Shown here piece by piece: positions 2,073 to 31,425 of a DNA stretch of 64,000 nucleotides. The stretch's first letter is position 1. The number at the start of each line of letters is the position of its first letter. Under the pieces are notes generated by a model. It was not told the DNA's origin. It searched no databases and was given only the letters and a program-made list of their open reading frames with translations. Made by a program: the position numbers and the translations under genes. Source of the stretch: Escherichia phage vB_EcoM_Schickermooser; the sequence record NC_048196.1, one strand, 5' to 3'.

Positions 2073-3065
2073 TTAAATCTTCTTACTCCACCATTGAGGG
2101 TTGTTTAAGTACCATTCAATCGTTGAGTAGAGATCTTGTTCAAATGTAGAGTTTGCACTCCAACCCAGTTCAGACTCTATTTTAGAAGGATTGATTTCAT
2201 AACGCAAGTCATGTCCTTTACGATCTTCAACAAAAGTTATCAAGTTGGAAGAAGGGTAGGTTCCTGCTTCTGGATGTACAGCATCCATGTAGTCACAAAC
2301 CATATAGATGATCTCCATATTGGTTTTGGGATTACGTGTTCCAACATTATACGTTTGACCTGGTTCTCCACCTGTTGCCACTTGAAGAATAGCTCGCGCA
2401 TGATCCTCAACAAAAAGCCAGTCTCGCACCTGATCGCCTTTACCATACACCGGAATCTCTTTATTCGTCAAGATACTTGTGATGATTTTTGGGATCAGCT
2501 TTTCTGGATGTTGATAAGGTCCAAAGTTATTGGAGCAGTTGGTTATCACAACAGGTAAACCGTAGGTACGGTACCAAGCTTTCACAAGATGGTCAGATGC
2601 TGCCTTAGACGCACTGTACGGGCTTGAAGGCGCATAAGCTGTCTCTTCGGTAAAGGGAACGCCAGAGTCTGCCATATCGCCGTACACTTCGTCTGTGGAG
2701 ACATGTACGAACATCTTAAGTTTATTTTTTGGGAGGAGCCTTGCAGCTTCCAATAAATTGTATGTACCAATAATATTGGAGTCGATGAAAACTCGTGGAT
2801 TCTTGATAGAATTATCCACATGACTCTCTGCCGCTAAGTGAATGATGAAATCGGGATTGCACTCTACTACTAAACTTTTGACCTGGGTTTCGTTTGCCAA
2901 ATCTGTTATGCTTAGTTTAACGTGAGTGATATCGCCTACATTCTCAATATCTGCTGCATAGCCCATCTTATCAACGACAAAAACTTCGTTATTGGGATCT
3001 TGACAAAGAGAGCGCACCACGGCACTCCCAATAAAACCAAGACCACCTGTTACCAGATAGCGCAT
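2073..3065 (-). CDS. rmlB: dTDP-glucose 4,6-dehydratase
   Basis: 330 aa; N-terminal TGGLGFIGS Rossmann motif, SDR catalytic YxxxK (YSASK), length typical of RmlB. Confidence 0.9.
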
Positions 3066-22071: not shown

Positions 22072-22183
22072 TTCTTACCTCCTTTGTTGTCAAAGTAGCT
22101 TACCAGAACATCGTGAACCACACACATGGCAAAAATCAGAACAATTGTTGCCAGGATTGGGTTCTCACTAATTAGTGCTATCA
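22068..22183 (-). CDS. small hydrophobic protein (about 38 aa)
   Basis: Internal start of track ORF 22068..22265 with GGAGGTGG RBS. Confidence 0.3.
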
Positions 22184-22491
22184 TCTTTAACCACCTCCAA
22201 TTGCCTTTCGAGTTTGACTTTGTTTGAGAACTGATAATGACACAACTTACATTGCATGTCAACAATCTGATCGTGATTTAACCCTACAATTTTAACTTCC
22301 TTTGCACCATCCCACTCCAAATACTCAAAGCCATCCAAATGATTACTCTTGTCCAACAGGAATGCTATCTGCTGCCATTCAATCTGAATATCATTTAAAT
22401 GATATGCTGCACAGAAGATATCCTCGTAGTAAAAGACGATCATTGTCATTGCTTCGTCCAGCACAACTACCTCTTGTCTTGTAAATCTCAT
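22168..22491 (-). CDS. hypothetical protein (107 aa), first gene of leftward block
   Basis: Track ORF adjacent to divergent control region. Confidence 0.45.
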   Translation of the reverse strand: MRFTRQEVVVLDEAMTMIVFYYEDIFCAAYHLNDIQIEWQQIAFLLDKSNHLDGFEYLEWDGAKEVKIVGLNHDQIVDMQCKLCHYQFSNKVKLERQLEVVKDDSTN

Positions 22492-22968
22492 TCTAGCCTC
22501 CTAAACGCGTCTCTGACGCACTTTTTATATATAAGATGATAAATCACCTTACCTAGTAAGTGAACTTTCTCTACGAGCCTCTTATGAAGCTTATGTTATA
22601 GGCTATACTATTGCTACCTATTTAAGCAAGGTTTTTTGCACAAAGAAAATAATTTTTAATAAAACTCTTGACTTTTGTGTTCGAAGTGTGCTACCCTAGA
22701 AATCTATTAACGAGCGCAGCGAGTTAAGGTTTTAGGTTGTTGATGTAGTACTCTGTACTCAAGTACTGTACTCCGTACTAGATTAATAATTATTAAATAT
22801 TAATAATAAATAATTATTAGATCTAACAAACAGGTACAGTGTATCAGAACTGGTACGTACAGATCAACTTCTATCAATTAAAAATAATAAATTATTATAA
22901 ATAATACTTGATCTATAGATTAGTATGAAGTACAGTACGGAACATCTTAACAAGAATGGAGGTGTGCA
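22492..22968. promoter_or_regulatory. divergent intergenic control region (candidate early promoters and/or replication origin)
   Basis: 477 bp non-coding between leftward and rightward gene blocks; GTACT repeats and AT-rich palindromes. Confidence 0.5.
22746..22782. repeat. cluster of five GTACT repeats
   Basis: GTACTCTGTACTCAAGTACTGTACTCCGTACTAG read directly. Confidence 0.7.
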
Positions 22969-23154
22969 ATGATTAGTGAGAATCCGTGCAAATGGCATCA
23001 TGTGCCTATTAAAGATTGTATGTCTTGTAATCCACGTTCTATTTATAACATTGCATCTTATGACGATGACAATGTGTTAGACGATGATGAAGGCTGGGAG
23101 GATTTAGATTGGACTGGTTATGAAACCAAAAAGGATAAAATTATTCCTAGTTGA
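22969..23154 (+). CDS. hypothetical protein (61 aa)
   Basis: GGAGGTG RBS before ATG. Confidence 0.45.
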   Translation: MISENPCKWHHVPIKDCMSCNPRSIYNIASYDDDNVLDDDEGWEDLDWTGYETKKDKIIPS

Positions 23155-23191
23155 CTTAAGATATCCTTCGTGCTAAACTAGAAGTGAGGAG

Positions 23192-23443
23192 ATGCCGATC
23201 ACTCCCCATTTGGGGTTCGAAGGATATATGCAAAATAGTTTTTATTTTAGGTGCCGTGCTTGTAATAGGCATTTGACAAACCACTCCAGACGTGATAAAA
23301 ATGGAGTCATCAAGGAATCAGACCTCTGTTCTATTTGCACAGGTTTGGCTTTTGATGATAGTCCCGAAAGGGTTTATCAGCATCAATGTATAACAGACGT
23401 TCTCGTGTCAAACTTGGTAGAGGACGAACAACTAACAGATTAG
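23192..23443 (+). CDS. hypothetical Cys-rich protein (83 aa)
   Basis: GAGGAG RBS. Confidence 0.4.
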   Translation: MPITPHLGFEGYMQNSFYFRCRACNRHLTNHSRRDKNGVIKESDLCSICTGLAFDDSPERVYQHQCITDVLVSNLVEDEQLTD

Positions 23444-23946: not shown

Positions 23947-24021
23947 GGCCCTGTAGCTCAATGGGAGAGCTGTCGGCTCATAACCGATAGGTAGCTGGAT
24001 CGAAACCAGCCAGGGCCACCA
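23947..24021 (+). tRNA. tRNA-Met or Ile2 (anticodon CAT)
   Basis: Cloverleaf folded by hand; anticodon loop CTCATAA; encoded CCA. Confidence 0.8.
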
Positions 24022-24023
24022 AA

Positions 24024-24098
24024 GTCTTTATGGTGTAATGGATAGCACAGGAGTCTTCTAAACTCTTAGTCAAGGTTCGATTCCTTGTAAAGACACCA
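24024..24098 (+). tRNA. tRNA-Arg (TCT)
   Basis: 7-bp acceptor stem, loop CTTCTAA, T-loop TTCGATT, encoded CCA. Confidence 0.8.
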
Positions 24099-24294
24099 GA
24101 ACATTTTAACATGAATTAGCTCAAGTGATTTGAACCCACTACTGATCATGGTGGCAGAGAATGAGGCAAGTATGTCAGACATTATAAACAAAGGCCACGG
24201 TTATATTAGAAGACATAAATGCTCGAAGAGCACCGTTCGTGGAGAACGGGGGTTGGTGGAGTCACCATTCATGGTAAAATGTTTTAAAAAACTA

Positions 24295-24324
24295 TTGACA
24301 ACAAGTATTATTTTATGTTAGATT
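24295..24324 (+). promoter_or_regulatory. sigma70-like promoter, copy 2 of AACTATTGACAA family
   Basis: TTGACA-18nt-TAGATT. Confidence 0.45.
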
Positions 24325-24332
24325 ATAAGTAT

Positions 24333-24423
24333 GGAAGGGCAAATCGACGTGGCGACGAAAACGGTCTTGAAAACCGCCGAGCTTTAAAGAGCCTTGGGAG
24401 TTCGACTCTCCCTCCTTCCGCCA
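24333..24423 (+). tRNA. tRNA-Ser (TGA), long variable arm
   Basis: Loop CTTGAAA, long extra arm, discriminator G, CCA. Confidence 0.7.
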
Positions 24424-24428
24424 GGTTA

Positions 24429-24514
24429 GGTAGATTGGTGAAATGGTAGCCACGACAGTTTGCTAAACTGTAGTCGGAAACGGCGTGTAGGTTCGAGTCC
24501 TACATCTACCGCCA
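24429..24514 (+). tRNA. tRNA-Ser (GCT), long variable arm
   Basis: Stem ACAGT/ACTGT, loop TTGCTAA, long extra arm, G73, CCA. Confidence 0.75.
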
Positions 24515-24644
24515 AGTTCTTTTTAATGTAGCTTACTTTAATAGAGTAAACTTTCGGCAAATGGCCCCCACCATCTTACCGATAACTCATAGTTAGTGGT
24601 GCGAACACTGGCTATTTTAAAAAGAATTTAAATACTAGCATTTA

Positions 24645-24732
24645 GGTGAGTTAATTCCGTAGGGGTAGCGGGGCAGACTGTAAATCTGTTATCATTGCGA
24701 TTCGGGTGGTTCGACTCCATCACTCACCACCA
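24645..24732 (+). tRNA. tRNA-Tyr (GTA), long variable arm
   Basis: Anticodon arm GCAGA-CTGTAAA-TCTGT closely matches E. coli tRNA-Tyr; A73, CCA. Confidence 0.7.
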
Positions 24733-24738
24733 AATTAA

Positions 24739-24824
24739 GATGAGTTGGCTGAATGGTTTAAGCGGCGGACTGTTAATCCGTGTTCGAAAGAACGATATAG
24801 GTTCAAATCCTATACTCATCGCCA
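24739..24824 (+). tRNA. long-variable-arm tRNA with Asn-type anticodon arm (GTT)
   Basis: Acceptor GATGAGT/ACTCATC, 3-bp D-stem, anticodon arm GCGGA-CTGTTAA-TCCGT, 15-nt extra arm with GTTC-GAAA-GAAC hairpin, G73, CCA. Confidence 0.55.
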
Positions 24825-24831
24825 GAATTAT

Positions 24832-24910
24832 GGACTTGTAGAGTTAAGGTAAACCCCCCAGTCGCCAAGAGGCTTCTGGAATTGCAGGTATCGAATCCTG
24901 CCGAGTCCCA
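24832..24910 (+). ncRNA. tRNA-like element with degenerate D and anticodon arms
   Basis: Acceptor GGACTTG/CGAGTCC and T-arm-like hairpin present; no canonical anticodon arm. Confidence 0.25.
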
Positions 24911-24915
24911 GCTTT

Positions 24916-24990
24916 GCTCCTATAGTATAATGGCTATTACAACGGTTTTGTAATCCGTGGATCTCTGTTCGATTCAGAGTGGGAGCACCA
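24916..24990 (+). tRNA. tRNA-Thr (TGT)
   Basis: Loop TTTGTAA, T-loop TTCGATT, CCA; one mismatch closing anticodon stem. Confidence 0.7.
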
Positions 24991-25263
24991 ACACAACATT
25001 AAGGGCACTGTGATTGATCGTCGTATCCTGTGCACAAGGTCTGTTCGAAAGACAGTGTTCTTAGTATTGTGTTGATCACAAAAAGAGTTACCTGAAACTT
25101 GACCGGAGTAGGGTTGGATGGGGCAAAAGAAGAAGCGGCTCTCCCATCGACAGCAACGAAGAATAATATTTGACTTTGGTTTTGTATTATTTTAAGTTAG
25201 CTTACCGAACGTAGGGCTAGTCACCCAATGGGATACTCGTCACTGTCCCACTCAATAAAACTA

Positions 25264-25293
25264 TTGACAACCAATAGTAAAATGTAGTATAGT
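25264..25293 (+). promoter_or_regulatory. sigma70-like promoter, copy 3 of AACTATTGACAA family
   Basis: TTGACA-18nt-TATAGT. Confidence 0.55.
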
Positions 25294-25304
25294 AAAGATG
25301 TAGG

Positions 25305-25378
25305 GCGTTCTTGGTGTAGCGGTAGCATTCCGTCCTTCCAAGTCGGCGGCACGAGTTCGATCCTCGTAGAACGCTCCA
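25305..25378 (+). tRNA. tRNA-Gly (TCC)
   Basis: Loop CTTCCAA, T-arm ACGAGTTCGATCCTCGT, discriminator T, CCA; layout like E. coli tRNA-Gly. Confidence 0.75.
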
Positions 25379-25476
25379 AATTATTTAATAAAGGGTTGCC
25401 AGAAAACTTTCTCTTTTACTCATGGTTTTCTCCTTCTCTCACACCTCTTCTGGTTGCCCTTCATTAAATGATTTAT

Positions 25477-25552
25477 TGGTTTGTAGTGTAGTCAGGTAGC
25501 ACACGACACTTTGACTGTCGTAGGTTTGGTTCAAATCCAGACAGACCAGCCA
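25477..25552 (+). tRNA. tRNA-Gln (TTG)
   Basis: Stem CGACA/TGTCG, loop CTTTGAC, CCA. Confidence 0.7.
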
Positions 25553-25557
25553 TATAA

Positions 25558-25634
25558 CGGAATTTAGCTCAGTTTGGTAGAGCATACGCTTTGGGAGCGT
25601 AGGGTCGCAGGTTCGAATCCTGCAATTCCGACCA
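25558..25634 (+). tRNA. tRNA-Pro (TGG)
   Basis: D-arm GCTCAGTTTGGTAGAGC, loop TTTGGGA, CCA. Confidence 0.8.
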
Positions 25635-25640
25635 ATTTAA

Positions 25641-25714
25641 TGTTTCGTAGTTCAATGGTAGAACCCACGACTGATAATCGTGAGACACAAGTTCGATTCT
25701 TGTCGAAACAACCA
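25641..25714 (+). tRNA. tRNA-Ile (GAT)
   Basis: Stem CACGA/TCGTG, loop CTGATAA, CCA. Confidence 0.75.
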
Positions 25715-25716
25715 AT

Positions 25717-25790
25717 TTCCCGTTAGACTTACAGGATAAGAGTTCCACAGCTTATTGTGATGCTGGTTCGAATCCAGCACGGGATACATA
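25717..25790 (+). ncRNA. tRNA-like element with non-canonical anticodon arm
   Basis: Acceptor, D and T arms (GCTGG-TTCGAAT-CCAGC) present; anticodon region folds only as CACAG-CTTA-TTGTG hairpin; no encoded CCA. Confidence 0.3.
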
Positions 25791-25792
25791 AT

Positions 25793-25871
25793 AGCGGGAT
25801 AGAGGAGTCTGGTCGTCCTCGCCAGTTTCATATGCTGGAGATCATCGGTTCAAATCCGATTCCCGCCTCCA
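25793..25871 (+). tRNA. tRNA-Met or Ile2 (anticodon CAT), second CAT tRNA
   Basis: Loop TTCATAT, T-loop TTCAAAT, CCA; A1-C72 mismatch. Confidence 0.65.
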
Positions 25872-29831: not shown

Positions 29832-31397
29832 GTGTCAACAGGAAAAAGAACGTACACTAAAAAGTCAGAATACTGGGACAAAGGTGCTGCAAATAAAGCT
29901 GCTCTCTCTCCAACAAAAGAGGCAGAGAAAGAGAAAACGTTACTCCTGTCACCTGAAATAGGAACGATCGGATTAAACTCAATCAAAGCATTTACGAATT
30001 TCATGCAACCTTATGAGACTCGTTTCCCAGAATGTATTCGCACTTTTAAAGAGATGGGTGAAGACCCTGATGTAGCTACTGCTCTTGACGCTACATATAT
30101 CTTTGTAGATAGAGCATTCTTTGATTTCAAGATAAAATACAATGTAAACTCGGCAAAGTCAAGAAAAGCTGCTAAGTTTATTGATTACATGTTACGCAAT
30201 ATGCAAGCCCCTCTACGTCAATATGTTAGATCACTTTTGACATATAAGCAATACGGGTTTGCATTCGCAGAAAAAGTTTATGAGTTGGATGAAGATCCTA
30301 AGAGTCCTTACTTTGGGTATTGGCGATTGACCAAACTGGCTTTTAGACCACAAGACACTCTTCACATGGCTCAACCTTTTACATATTCGGCAGACGGACG
30401 TTCTATTCTATCTGTTAACCAGAATATCACCAATACGATGTTAGCTCCAGGTAATACAACTTTAGAAACTGGTATTAAAGAAATTCCTTTCAGTAAAGTT
30501 TTATTTGTTGGTAGTAACATTACAGAGAATAACCCACTAGGAGTTAGTCCGCTTTTAGCTGTATATCGTAGCTGGCGTGAAAAATCTCTTATTCAGGAAT
30601 TTGAGGTTATTGGGGTATCTAAAGATTTAGGCGGTATGCCAGTTCTTAAGGTTCCAAGTGACATTCTAAACAGGGCATCTTTAGATCCTGCTGGGGATGA
30701 AGCACAATCTCTTCGAGTTCTCCAAGCCAATATCGCTAACCTGCACTCTGGTGAGCAAGCCTATATGGTATTGCCTTCAGACGTTTATGAAGGCACAGTG
30801 ATGCGTCAATACGATCTTGTATTCCAAGGTGTTGATGGCACGGGTAAACAGTTTGACACTCAAGCACTAATCAAACAACGCAAACTGGATATTTATAACC
30901 GCTTTGGTGCGGGTGTGTTGATTATGGGTGATGGTGATGCAGGAAGTTTTGCGCTTTCTGACAACAAACAAACACTATTGTCTCATTTTATTGAGCGAGA
31001 TGTAGATATTGTTGTAGAAGCTATAAACTCTCAACTGATCCCTCAAACACTACGACTAAACAATATCTTCCTTTCTGATGAAGATATGCCTAAGTTTGTC
31101 AGTGGTGAAATGGGTGATCCTGATATTGAAGTAAATGCTAAAGCTATTCAGCAGTTGGTAGCCTCTGGTGCAATACCTTTAACCCCAGAAGTTATTAACG
31201 AGTTCCTTGAAAAAATTGGTTTTGAATATCGTATCCCTGACGATATTGTTGCCAATAAAGAGAAATTCTTTGAATTCATGGATAACTATATGCCTGACAA
31301 AACTTCACGATCAGGAGATGGTTTAGCTACAGCGGGAACTGGAACGTCTGATACTGTTTCTGCTTTAGATCCTTCGGCACAAAACCTGTCGAATTAA
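29832..31397 (+). CDS. portal protein
   Basis: 521 aa, GTG start with GGAGGA RBS, immediately after terminase. Confidence 0.55.
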   Translation: MSTGKRTYTKKSEYWDKGAANKAALSPTKEAEKEKTLLLSPEIGTIGLNSIKAFTNFMQPYETRFPECIRTFKEMGEDPDVATALDATYIFVDRAFFDFKIKYNVNSAKSRKAAKFIDYMLRNMQAPLRQYVRSLLTYKQYGFAFAEKVYELDEDPKSPYFGYWRLTKLAFRPQDTLHMAQPFTYSADGRSILSVNQNITNTMLAPGNTTLETGIKEIPFSKVLFVGSNITENNPLGVSPLLAVYRSWREKSLIQEFEVIGVSKDLGGMPVLKVPSDILNRASLDPAGDEAQSLRVLQANIANLHSGEQAYMVLPSDVYEGTVMRQYDLVFQGVDGTGKQFDTQALIKQRKLDIYNRFGAGVLIMGDGDAGSFALSDNKQTLLSHFIERDVDIVVEAINSQLIPQTLRLNNIFLSDEDMPKFVSGEMGDPDIEVNAKAIQQLVASGAIPLTPEVINEFLEKIGFEYRIPDDIVANKEKFFEFMDNYMPDKTSRSGDGLATAGTGTSDTVSALDPSAQNLSN

Positions 31398-31425
31398 AAA
31401 TATTTAATATTTTTTAATTTTTCTA

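Follow-up and report, generated by a model that had tools for sequence, protein, structure and literature searches.

Switch regions of temperate phages, such as pR/pL of 186, Pe/Pc of P2, and PR/PRM of lambda, are organized around defined repressors and operators. Here we describe a 477-bp gap between genes at positions 22492-22968 of a 64,000-nucleotide stretch (the window, meaning the whole stretch of DNA that was analyzed) of Escherichia phage vB_EcoM_Schickermooser (NC_048196.1), with small early-type genes running leftward on one side of it and a second gene block running rightward on the other. As in the temperate switches, several candidate sigma-70 promoters lie within a few hundred base pairs between divergent early blocks, and one pair of them converges, so interference or a bound regulator could set the balance between the two directions. 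Unlike those switches, the gap belongs to a virulent 150-kb myovirus with no known repressor, and its repeat units are 5-8 bp apart rather than arranged as 17-20-bp operators. A second comparison is with the arrays of ribbon-helix-helix proteins, which include those of omega of pSM19035, the MetJ metboxes, and the ACTC boxes of ParG. These share with the gap tandem 7-8-bp units near promoters, and the GTACTC found here includes ACTC, but the units in the gap follow an irregular spacing of 7, 8, 5, and 7 bp from start to start and no ribbon-helix-helix gene was recognized among the neighbors. We propose that the gap is an early-transcription control hub of a phAPEC8-type myovirus. Taken whole, with a role for the repeat array included, this proposal has in our view an even chance of being correct; its promoter part, which draws on hexamers and spacings conserved across lineages, is put forward as a prediction in which we have considerable confidence.

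The window comes from a Phapecoctavirus, a phAPEC8-like myovirus of the Stephanstirmvirinae, with 99.5% identity over 3 kb to DIJ07P1 and ~98.8% identity to ESCO13, tuntematon, and others. DIJ07P1 is the closest complete genome (142.9 kb) and stands in below for whole-genome statistics. In the phAPEC8 clade, this spacer is present at ~97% identity in roughly 60 records. A sister clade, made up of phiWec179, 181, 186, 188, 190, and PsgM04F together with one IMG/VR contig, shares the flanking genes and the left portion of the spacer, but the middle of its spacer is unrelated in sequence: GTAC is absent, GATC occurs five times (in three cases within AGATCT), and an additional leftward gene encodes 70 aa. 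The spacers of Justusliebigvirus muut and Klebsiella phage phi1_175008 were reached through the homolog of the 107-aa product of the first leftward gene, which is also the first gene beside the divergent spacer in both of these phages, and further lineages were reached through pattern scans of IMG/VR.

Promoters were called as hexamers at a fixed spacing that are kept across phage lineages while the sequence of the spacer between them drifts. The extended -10 promoter P_A (22668-22697, + strand) consists of TTGACT at 22668-22673, 18 nt ending in TGc, and TACCCT at 22692-22697; a 19-nt A/T run lies upstream at 22646, and the predicted start is ~22704. Its pattern of TTGACw, 17-18 nt ending in TGn, and TACCCT is invariant over unrelated spacer sequences in at least six lineages, including the phAPEC8 clade, the phiWec clade, Justusliebigvirus, the Klebsiella-phage lineage, and further IMG/VR contigs. 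P2 (22908-22936, +) lies just before the first rightward gene, with TTGATC at 22908-22913, a 17-nt spacer, TACAGT at 22931-22936, and a predicted start at ~22943. Its position and 17-nt spacing are kept in four lineages, in which the -10 reads TAGAGT, TACACT, or TACAGT. Facing P_A on the opposite strand is a second extended -10 promoter, P3 (22867-22838, -), which has a -35 of TTGATC at 22867-22862, a 15-nt spacer, TGA at 22846-22844, and a -10 of TACACT at 22843-22838. The predicted start of P3 is ~22831 and its counterpart in DIJ07P1 is at 139607 (-). Its 15+3 spacing and TGn motif recur in three lineages, each with a different spacer sequence; as read from the sequences, the equivalents are TTGATC-N15-TGT-TACTAT in the phiWec clade and TTGAGT-N15-TGA-TACTCT in Klebsiella phage phi1_175008. 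All three promoters thus have a -35-like hexamer, 16-18 nt, and a TAnnnT -10, the pattern of sigma-70, with TGn in P_A and P3. A fourth, weak predicted sigma-70 promoter, P_left (22564-22536, -), combines TTCACT, a 17-nt spacer, and TATCAT, and might start transcripts at ~22529 (-). The initial annotation had suggested a control or switch region, and the conserved hexamers at fixed spacing on both strands, with one facing pair, support that idea.

Across the DIJ07P1 genome, the extended -10 pattern occurs 35 times versus 5 in shuffles (~7x), which marks it as a genuine signal there. Between the back-to-back P3 and P2 lies AT block 2 (22876-22906), a 31-nt run of A/T only. A comparable 30-50-bp AT-rich block is found directly upstream of the P2 -35 in all four lineages, the phiWec clade, muut, and the Klebsiella-phage lineage among them; for this reason the block can be read simply as an UP-like flank shared by P3 and P2. 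The two promoters appear to be individually dispensable, since phage nieznany is without 22838-22893 (P3 included) and phage EP57 is without 22916-22953 (the P2 -10 included), and both were deposited as isolated phages. A second promoter class with a conserved leader is also present in DIJ07P1, with five copies in 5.5 kb at 78764, 80201, 80654, 83964, and 84252 (+). Its pattern is TTGAyN, 13 nt, TGn, and a TAnnnT -10, followed by the leader (G/T)TATC(A/G)(C/T)(A/G)TAGGGCGG(C/G/-)(G/A)A(A/T)(T/A)(A/G/-)(G/C)T(G/C/T)CC(G/A/C)(C/G)(C/A)(G/C)(C/A)(T/C/A)(C/A/T).

Two 5-mers are enriched in the spacer of all six lineages, TAGAT/ATCTA (25 versus 4.2) and AGATC (23 versus 4.4), which suggests a shared operator-like motif; GTAC is not enriched in this way, and the two 5-mers are better candidates for a shared operator. 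Several copies lie at the -35 and spacer of P2 and at the ends of the inverted repeat IR1 described below. Three GATC (Dam) sites fall within 94 bp, at 22820, 22862, and 22910 (P ~0.008), and two of them sit in the TTGATC -35 hexamers of P3 and P2; methylation-sensitive promoter activity is conceivable. In the phiWec clade, the equivalent stretch holds five GATC.

The other element kept across lineages is a promoter-proximal hairpin at 22707-22727 (+), with the stem TTAAC/GTTAA and the core GAGCGCAGCGA at 22712-22722. An 11-nt core, GAGCG(C/A)AGCGA, is kept 10-30 nt downstream of P_A and contains GCGNAGC (GCGCAGC in the window). We read this core as tandem G.A pairs, a GC/GC inner stem, and a GNA triloop. 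The flanks of the hairpin are complementary but lineage-specific, being TTAAC/GTTAA in the window and TGAC/GTTA, AGTATG/CATACT, or CC/GG elsewhere, and the variant GAACGAAGTGA swaps an inner G-C pair for A-U. In an 11-sequence alignment, 79.5% of cells pair versus 65% in shuffles, none of 500 of which reach that value, and slid controls are far lower; as the structure was derived from the same sequences, this result is somewhat inflated. Five of the eight pairs change on both sides, including the inner-stem change from G-C to A-U. A covariance model gives E = 4.5e-7 at the window hairpin, which was in its training set, and E = 0.044 at a site outside that set; the search with it returned one further plausible site and one likely chance match in coding sequence. 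No family matching the hairpin was found in Rfam.

A published rule for 'mini-hairpin DNA' of the GCGNAGC / GCGNNAGC type, C-G-N(1-2)-A-G plus complementary flanks (PMC13037366), describes this core well: the GCGCAGC within 22712-22722 follows it, and the variants of relatives keep it while their flanks covary. For example, ACGAAGT, ACGTAGT, and GCGATAGC (the latter elsewhere in the genome) have a G-N(1-2)-A loop closed by a C.G or A.T pair. The GCG(C/A)AGC core and loop rule are shared with the G4 complementary-strand origin, RSF1010 ssiA, and the N4 early promoters (PMC13037366), whereas the location differs: here the motif is carried by the non-template strand of a double-stranded DNA myovirus, 10-30 nt past a sigma-70 promoter. 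The module of P_A promoter plus hairpin also occurs in DIJ07P1 at 69281 (-), upstream of an ordinary mRNA, and at 99522 (-), where no open reading frame follows and the transcript is probably a non-coding RNA; neither copy has an AT element. More broadly, P_A-type promoters (TGnTACCCT) with a GNA or GNNA mini-hairpin are present in two or three copies per genome in several genera, and many lineages have an extra first mini-hairpin (ACGAAGT or CCGAAGG) just after the -10 and before the main one. The exact 21-mer AACGAGCGCAGCGAGTTAAGG (22709-22729) was also found in two unrelated bacterial metagenome contigs, each time right after a hairpin. One of these copies is flanked by GTTAAC and GGCGCGCC and may be an engineered construct. 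The 14-mer CGAGCGCAGCGAGT is present in ~2,100 ColE1-type plasmids (presence confirmed), where it presumably lies downstream of the origin; a position at the primosome assembly site would be conjecture, and the match is not used as evidence.

The initial annotation had singled out the gap for its GTACT repeats and AT-rich palindromes, and this observation is confirmed as real, with no chance pattern behind it. There are five GTACT units as described, starting at 22748, 22755, 22763, 22768, and 22775; their span was given as 22746-22782 (37 bp) and is in fact 22748-22779 (32 bp). The further GTAC motifs are present with small shifts, GGTACAG at 22833-22839, GGTACGTACAG at 22852-22862, and GTACAGTAC at 22930-22938, and both named AT palindromes are perfect: TAATAATTATTA (inside the 14-bp TTAATAATTATTAA, start 22783) and ATCTATAGAT (start 22911). 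In total, the gap holds 5 perfect palindromes of at least 10 bp versus 0.95 expected, a ~5-fold excess, and ~0.2% of dinucleotide-preserving shuffles reach 5. Several of these motifs coincide with promoter elements. For instance, GTACAGTAC is the P2 -10 plus flanking bases, ATCTATAGAT overlaps the P2 -35 and spacer, GTACGTAC (22853-22860) lies in the P3 spacer, and GGTACAG overlaps the first two bases of the P3 -10 and the predicted start. Beyond the five GTACT units, there are five further GTAC sites at 22834-22938, and four or five of the ten sites are in or beside P2 and P3 elements.

This concentration stands against a genome that avoids the tetranucleotide. GTAC is the most depleted 4-bp palindrome of the window, with 67 seen versus ~202 expected (ratio 0.33), while GTACT on both strands of the window counts 36 versus 112 +/- 12 expected; the DIJ07P1 genome has 134 GTAC versus 434 expected. 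The background rate predicts 0.17 GTAC in the 191 bp that hold all ten (Poisson P ~5e-15, although the ten sites are not independent events if made by local duplication). The gap is the sole 200-bp window with more than five GTAC in DIJ07P1, and thus its only strong GTAC cluster; the only other 200-bp window with five lies inside a sugar-nucleotide dehydratase gene. A second, weaker cluster in the window (2566-2764, 6 in 200 bp) was set aside as unrelated, being inside a dTDP-glucose 4,6-dehydratase gene. The open reading frame in question (2073-3065, -) carries that annotation in ESCO13 and belongs to an rml-like sugar-nucleotide gene set; it may be a recent acquisition in which the purge of GTAC is still pending. 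The depletion differs between clades, since the GTAC ratio is 0.28-0.33 only in the phAPEC8 clade and 0.5-1.0 in the other lineages, and the phiWec clade has zero CTAG in 15.7 kb versus 36 expected. Palindrome depletion of this kind looks like clade-specific avoidance of restriction sites, to which ten extra GTAC at one locus would add little risk. Two deposited phages, BI-EHEC (OL505078) and KKP 3954 (OR067838), differ from all their relatives specifically at GTAC, in whose place they mostly read ATAC or GTAT, along with small insertions. Over 50 kb, BI-EHEC shows changes at 26 of 46 GTAC sites, and 24 of its 846 mismatches are packed into 0.37% of the columns; its annotation also contains fragmented genes. 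Such changes resemble bases miscalled at a modified motif, in which case GTAC would have been methylated in those DNA preparations; the alternative is a real GTAC purge. A phage DNA methyltransferase was considered as the source of the GTAC oddities, and none was found in a crude motif search of DIJ07P1 open reading frames of at least 120 aa, which is a weak test.

The gap is also exceptional in its base composition. The two longest A/T-only runs of the 142.9-kb genome fall in it (38 and 32 nt in DIJ07P1, 38 and 31 nt in the window), and it is the least stable duplex of the genome at 40-, 100-, and 200-bp scales (z ~+5 at 40 bp). A further 31-nt A/T-only run, tied as second longest of the window, occurs in the structural gene block at 31392-31422. 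Two features of the gap lie next to each other. The first is the direct-repeat array of GTACT x5 (22748-22779, +), whose units are GTACTCT, GTACTCAA, GTACT, GTACTCC, and GTACTAG; in phAPEC8 itself, one unit is altered to GCACT. Tandem Repeats Finder calls only the AT block at 22782-22819 and not the array, which has no constant period. The second is IR1 (22779-22825), an inverted repeat of nearly all A/T with the arms TAGATTAATAATTATT / AATAATTATTAGATCTA. It contains the 38-nt run (22782-22819) and the least stable 40-bp duplex, with a dG40 of -34.2 versus a mean of -51.4 +/- 3.3, and it is nearly invariant in 12 relatives; in UP17, a 1-nt insertion renders the repeat perfect. A minimal start-stop open reading frame (ATG TAG, 22743-22748) stands right before the array, ~6 nt past an AGG.

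From the anatomy, the cross-lineage hexamers and spacings, the hairpin covariation, and the statistics above, we infer promoter activity, start sites, and a function for the array as follows. The sigma-70 RNA polymerase of the host would initiate from up to four promoters, which form the back-to-back pairs P_left/P_A and P3/P2. Transcripts from P_A and P2 would cover the rightward operon, which comprises the 61-aa gene, then the tRNA array, and then the terminase, while the leftward early block would be served by P3, perhaps together with P_left. Because P_A and P3 would fire toward each other from starts at ~22704 and ~22831, their 5' leaders are predicted to overlap by ~130 bp. Each P_A-type transcript would start with the conserved hairpin, and AT block 2 would act as the shared UP-like upstream flank of P3 and P2. 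The interval between the facing P_A and P3 holds the hairpin, the GTACT x5 array, and IR1. The latter two would be additions of the phAPEC8 clade that arose from local duplication and slippage, and our best guess is that they form a cis element that sets the balance of rightward versus leftward early transcription. Such an element could work as an array of operators or roadblocks to which a small DNA-binding protein attaches, or as an intrinsically deformable barrier to converging polymerases. The operator or roadblock role is a tentative suggestion, which we nevertheless favor over a neutral repeat and over an origin. Most of the region resolves into a dense early-promoter cluster of a familiar kind, and what is less ordinary about it is the mini-hairpin and the array with IR1.

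Several points weigh against this proposal. In the case of the promoters, a generic 9-of-12 consensus scan misses P_A, P2, and P3, all of which score below threshold, and it is for this reason that cross-lineage conservation was used instead, along with the extended -10 motifs of P_A and P3. P_left was found by the consensus scan only (9/12 positions), its -35 is not kept in the phiWec clade, and it is held with low confidence. The literature on this phage group yielded no transcription start, RNA, or protein-binding data. In the case of the array, it is restricted to the phAPEC8 clade and is found neither in the phiWec clade nor in muut nor in the Klebsiella-phage lineage; this absence from the sister clade and other genera means that it is not essential to the hub. 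The initial annotation had taken the repeats for a protein-binding array, which is possible, and direct support for it did not emerge: the units are irregular at 5-8 bp, they occur in one clade only, and no partner protein was found. The spacings do not fit any known dimeric operator phasing, and no candidate array-binding protein was seen among the neighbors, in which no domains were recognized on either side of the gap. The 107-aa protein was rejected as the specificity partner, as it does not co-vary with spacer type: phiWec190 pairs a window-type protein (93% identity) with a phiWec-type spacer. The E. coli TrpR operator was also rejected. Its consensus, which we take to be inverted GNACT / AGTNC half-sites in the 18-bp arrangement GTACTAGTTAACTAGTAC, is unlike the GTACT units, which are direct and not inverted, and the lone GTACT-to-AGTAC pair has an offset of 14, not 13. 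Finally, short heptamer-type arrays are common in viral contigs with any core, which makes a neutral origin plausible. Arrays of four GTACT at 5-9-bp spacing were found at 94 IMG/VR loci, but the control cores GTCAT (at least 120) and GATCT (72) give similar numbers; the notion of GTACT arrays as a special, widespread phage motif is thereby ruled out, with control cores equally or more frequent.

A neutral history of the array is the first alternative to be weighed; we regard it as rather doubtful, yet as a serious competitor for the role of the array. On this view, local duplication and replication slippage in a spacer that evolves fast left behind the GTACT array, and probably also IR1, as functionally neutral sequence. 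A promoter -10 segment containing GTAC (GTACAGTAC) would have been duplicated in both direct and inverted orientation before a short unit was amplified. Traces that fit such a route are plentiful. GTACTGTACT (22763-22772) within the array is the exact reverse complement of AGTACAGTAC at the P2 -10, and a 56-nt imperfect inverted repeat and the direct-repeat families D1 and D2 join the left and right halves of the spacer; the likeness of IR1 to AT block 2 through these families suggests local duplication. Other small duplications occur in the same spacer, such as the TTAAGG-containing TTAAGGTTT, in tandem just upstream of the array in anhysbys and UP17, and the AT-block units duplicated in BI-EHEC and L017. 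Local duplication and slippage thus probably produced both the array and IR1, and the confinement of the array to one clade and the frequency of heptamer-type arrays of any core would suit a neutral outcome. With ~124 other GTAC sites in the genome, ten more would also mean little extra restriction exposure. However, a purely neutral repeat does not sit easily with its preservation, as 46 of 63 Phapecoctavirus records have the 53-nt array segment at 100% identity, although the spacer is indel-prone and ~97% identical as a whole. Nor does it account for GTAC being otherwise avoided ~3-fold in the phAPEC8 clade, or for the placement of the array exactly between two facing promoters. Ten-mer inverted repeats are, moreover, only mildly unlikely by chance, with ~0.1 expected in 477 bp by our estimate.

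The initial annotation had also raised the possibility of a replication origin, for which the case is circumstantial (the least stable duplex, an upstream promoter, and a GC-skew minimum). A transcription-primed origin in the manner of T4 oriF/oriG, the T7 primary origin, or ColE1 would have the P_A and P3 transcripts enter IR1 and form R-loops that prime the leading strands, with the GCGNAGC mini-hairpin on the displaced strand and the GTAC repeats loading a phage replication protein. We consider this unlikely. Like T4 oriF/oriG, the T7 primary origin, and ColE1 RNA II, the gap places a promoter before an AT-rich unwinding element, here the least stable duplex of the genome with its two longest A/T-only runs, and promoters point into IR1 from both sides. 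It differs from them in that the AT element is largely promoter upstream DNA (AT block 2 being explained as the flank kept in every lineage) and in that clade-specific parts are missing from relatives; the sister lineages without IR1 and the array must replicate too. GCGNAGC-type mini-hairpins occur at phage and plasmid replication or transcription initiation sites (PMC13037366), a tie to initiation that would favor an origin, but the P_A and hairpin module is also found at sites without an AT-rich element. The three GATC sites within 94 bp and the AGATC enrichment in all lineages would fit an origin, as would the replication genes of the related rV5, which encodes a T7-like primase-helicase and a PolA-type polymerase (PMC3606486). 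Against it, the units of 5-8 bp and their spacings do not amount to iterons of ~17-22 bp in helical phase or to known initiator sites such as DnaA boxes, and no initiator gene was recognized nearby. The GC skew that the initial annotation proposed to examine does reach the global minimum of its cumulative curve at the gap in the whole DIJ07P1 genome, but at each of the four block boundaries the skew follows the orientation of the genes. The block-wise slopes of 0.077, 0.149, 0.145, and 0.145 per kb contain no consistent replication component, and skew in rV5 likewise follows gene orientation (PMC3606486). Since it flips at every gene-block boundary, the skew carries no separate information on replication and was rejected as origin evidence. 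A more specific variant, which we think less probable still, is a bidirectional transcription-primed origin in which the displaced-strand mini-hairpin stabilizes an R-loop or serves in priming and GTAC is the loading or nicking site for a clade-specific protein. If true, it would connect the avoidance of GTAC across the genome with its clustering at this one locus.

Control at the level of RNA is very unlikely to be the main function. Here, the long P_A leader would fold, with GUACUGUACU pairing with AGUACAGUAC and with an AU hairpin as a further element, or the antisense leaders of P_A and P3 would form double-stranded RNA, and the target would be the translation or stability of the first genes. 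The leader does fold better than shuffles (z = -3.2 as RNA and z = -3.5 as single-stranded DNA), the predicted leaders overlap by ~130 nt, and the conserved 5' hairpin shows covariation. However, the long-range pairing lacks covariation and is disrupted or lost altogether in phAPEC8, dw-ec, EP57, and nieznany; the AU-only stem is weak, with no U-tract following, and there is no Rfam match. Base pairing, in RNA, of the array with the distant P2 -10 was rejected on the same grounds, being without covariation and disrupted in natural variants.

In the packaging (pac) site of P1, clustered GATC-containing hexamers lie on both sides of the cut. The gap resembles this in that clusters of a motif with a short palindromic core flank a center, GTACGTAC, and in having a terminase gene ~4.5 kb downstream; its motif is GTAC and not GATC, the crude motif search returned no GTAC methylase, and no terminus has been mapped here. 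A pac site or genome terminus is highly improbable, given that no deposited record starts or ends here (that of nieznany begins inside the 61-aa gene), that the motif set differs between clades with near-identical terminases, that the literature on the genus yielded no terminus data (a search on Phapecoctavirus termini, origin, or transcriptome found nothing usable), and that the 342-bp terminal repeat reported for the phi92-like phage BME3 sits in a separate ~3-kb non-coding region (PMC12210895). Duplication of a stretch containing N bases in the BME3 record points to a fault in its assembly. Its ~3-kb non-coding region (L026 1-1480, L027 1490-3000) also holds several sequences resembling the E. 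coli Fur box, the consensus of which we take to be GATAATGATTATCATT.

Returning to the proposed hub, the genes on its two sides offer few clues of their own. The gap and its divergent flanks were correctly delimited from the outset, with open reading frames at 22168-22491 (-) and 22969-23154 (+), and in deposited records it is unannotated except for automatic 'repeat_region' features in some Danish isolates. The first leftward gene (22168-22491, -) encodes the 107-aa protein, assigned to phrog_14390 with no function. A small GC hairpin, GCGTC-TCT-GACGC (22507-22519), lies in its 5' leader immediately upstream of the ribosome-binding site; it is listed as terminator-like on the + strand in a scan and is kept in aligned relatives. 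On the other side, a GGAGG ribosome-binding site at 22958 precedes the first rightward gene (22958-23154 with this site, +), which encodes a 61-aa protein (phrog_26411) with a CxxH...CxxC motif and then an acidic tail, again with no function assigned. The rightward block continues with ten or eleven tRNA genes (23947-25871) and the terminase. The eleventh is a tRNA-like sequence at 24645-24729 (+) that Rfam scores at 39 bits, above its gathering score, and that ARAGORN does not call. Searches of the spacer for tRNAs and Rfam families gave no match, 22400-23200 returned only chance-level Rfam matches (E >= 1.2), and tRNAs are the only Rfam matches above the gathering threshold in the window. 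In the phiWec, Klebsiella-phage, and L151 lineages, the first leftward gene by the spacer instead encodes a small basic protein with the motif (D/N)LTP.xK.GG (L005 2573-2785, -; L029 2131-2388, -; L151 6428-6619, -), which could be a regulator; none is found in the phAPEC8 clade or muut. The other divergent junction of the genome (DIJ07P1 71-73.5 kb) has no comparable repeats.

Phapecoctavirus, phi92-like, and rV5-like phages are among the commonest broad-host-range coliphage isolates and are used in therapeutic cocktails. For these phages, the present analysis supplies testable coordinates of predicted early promoters. It also brings out a conserved module of promoter and mini-hairpin that is common to several genera and not in Rfam, as well as a single spot at which a tetranucleotide avoided by the genome, GTAC, is concentrated. 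If the array or the hairpin binds a regulator or primes replication, it would provide a handle for engineering or for the control of timing; otherwise, the locus would be an ordinary, dense promoter cluster with a lineage-specific repeat.

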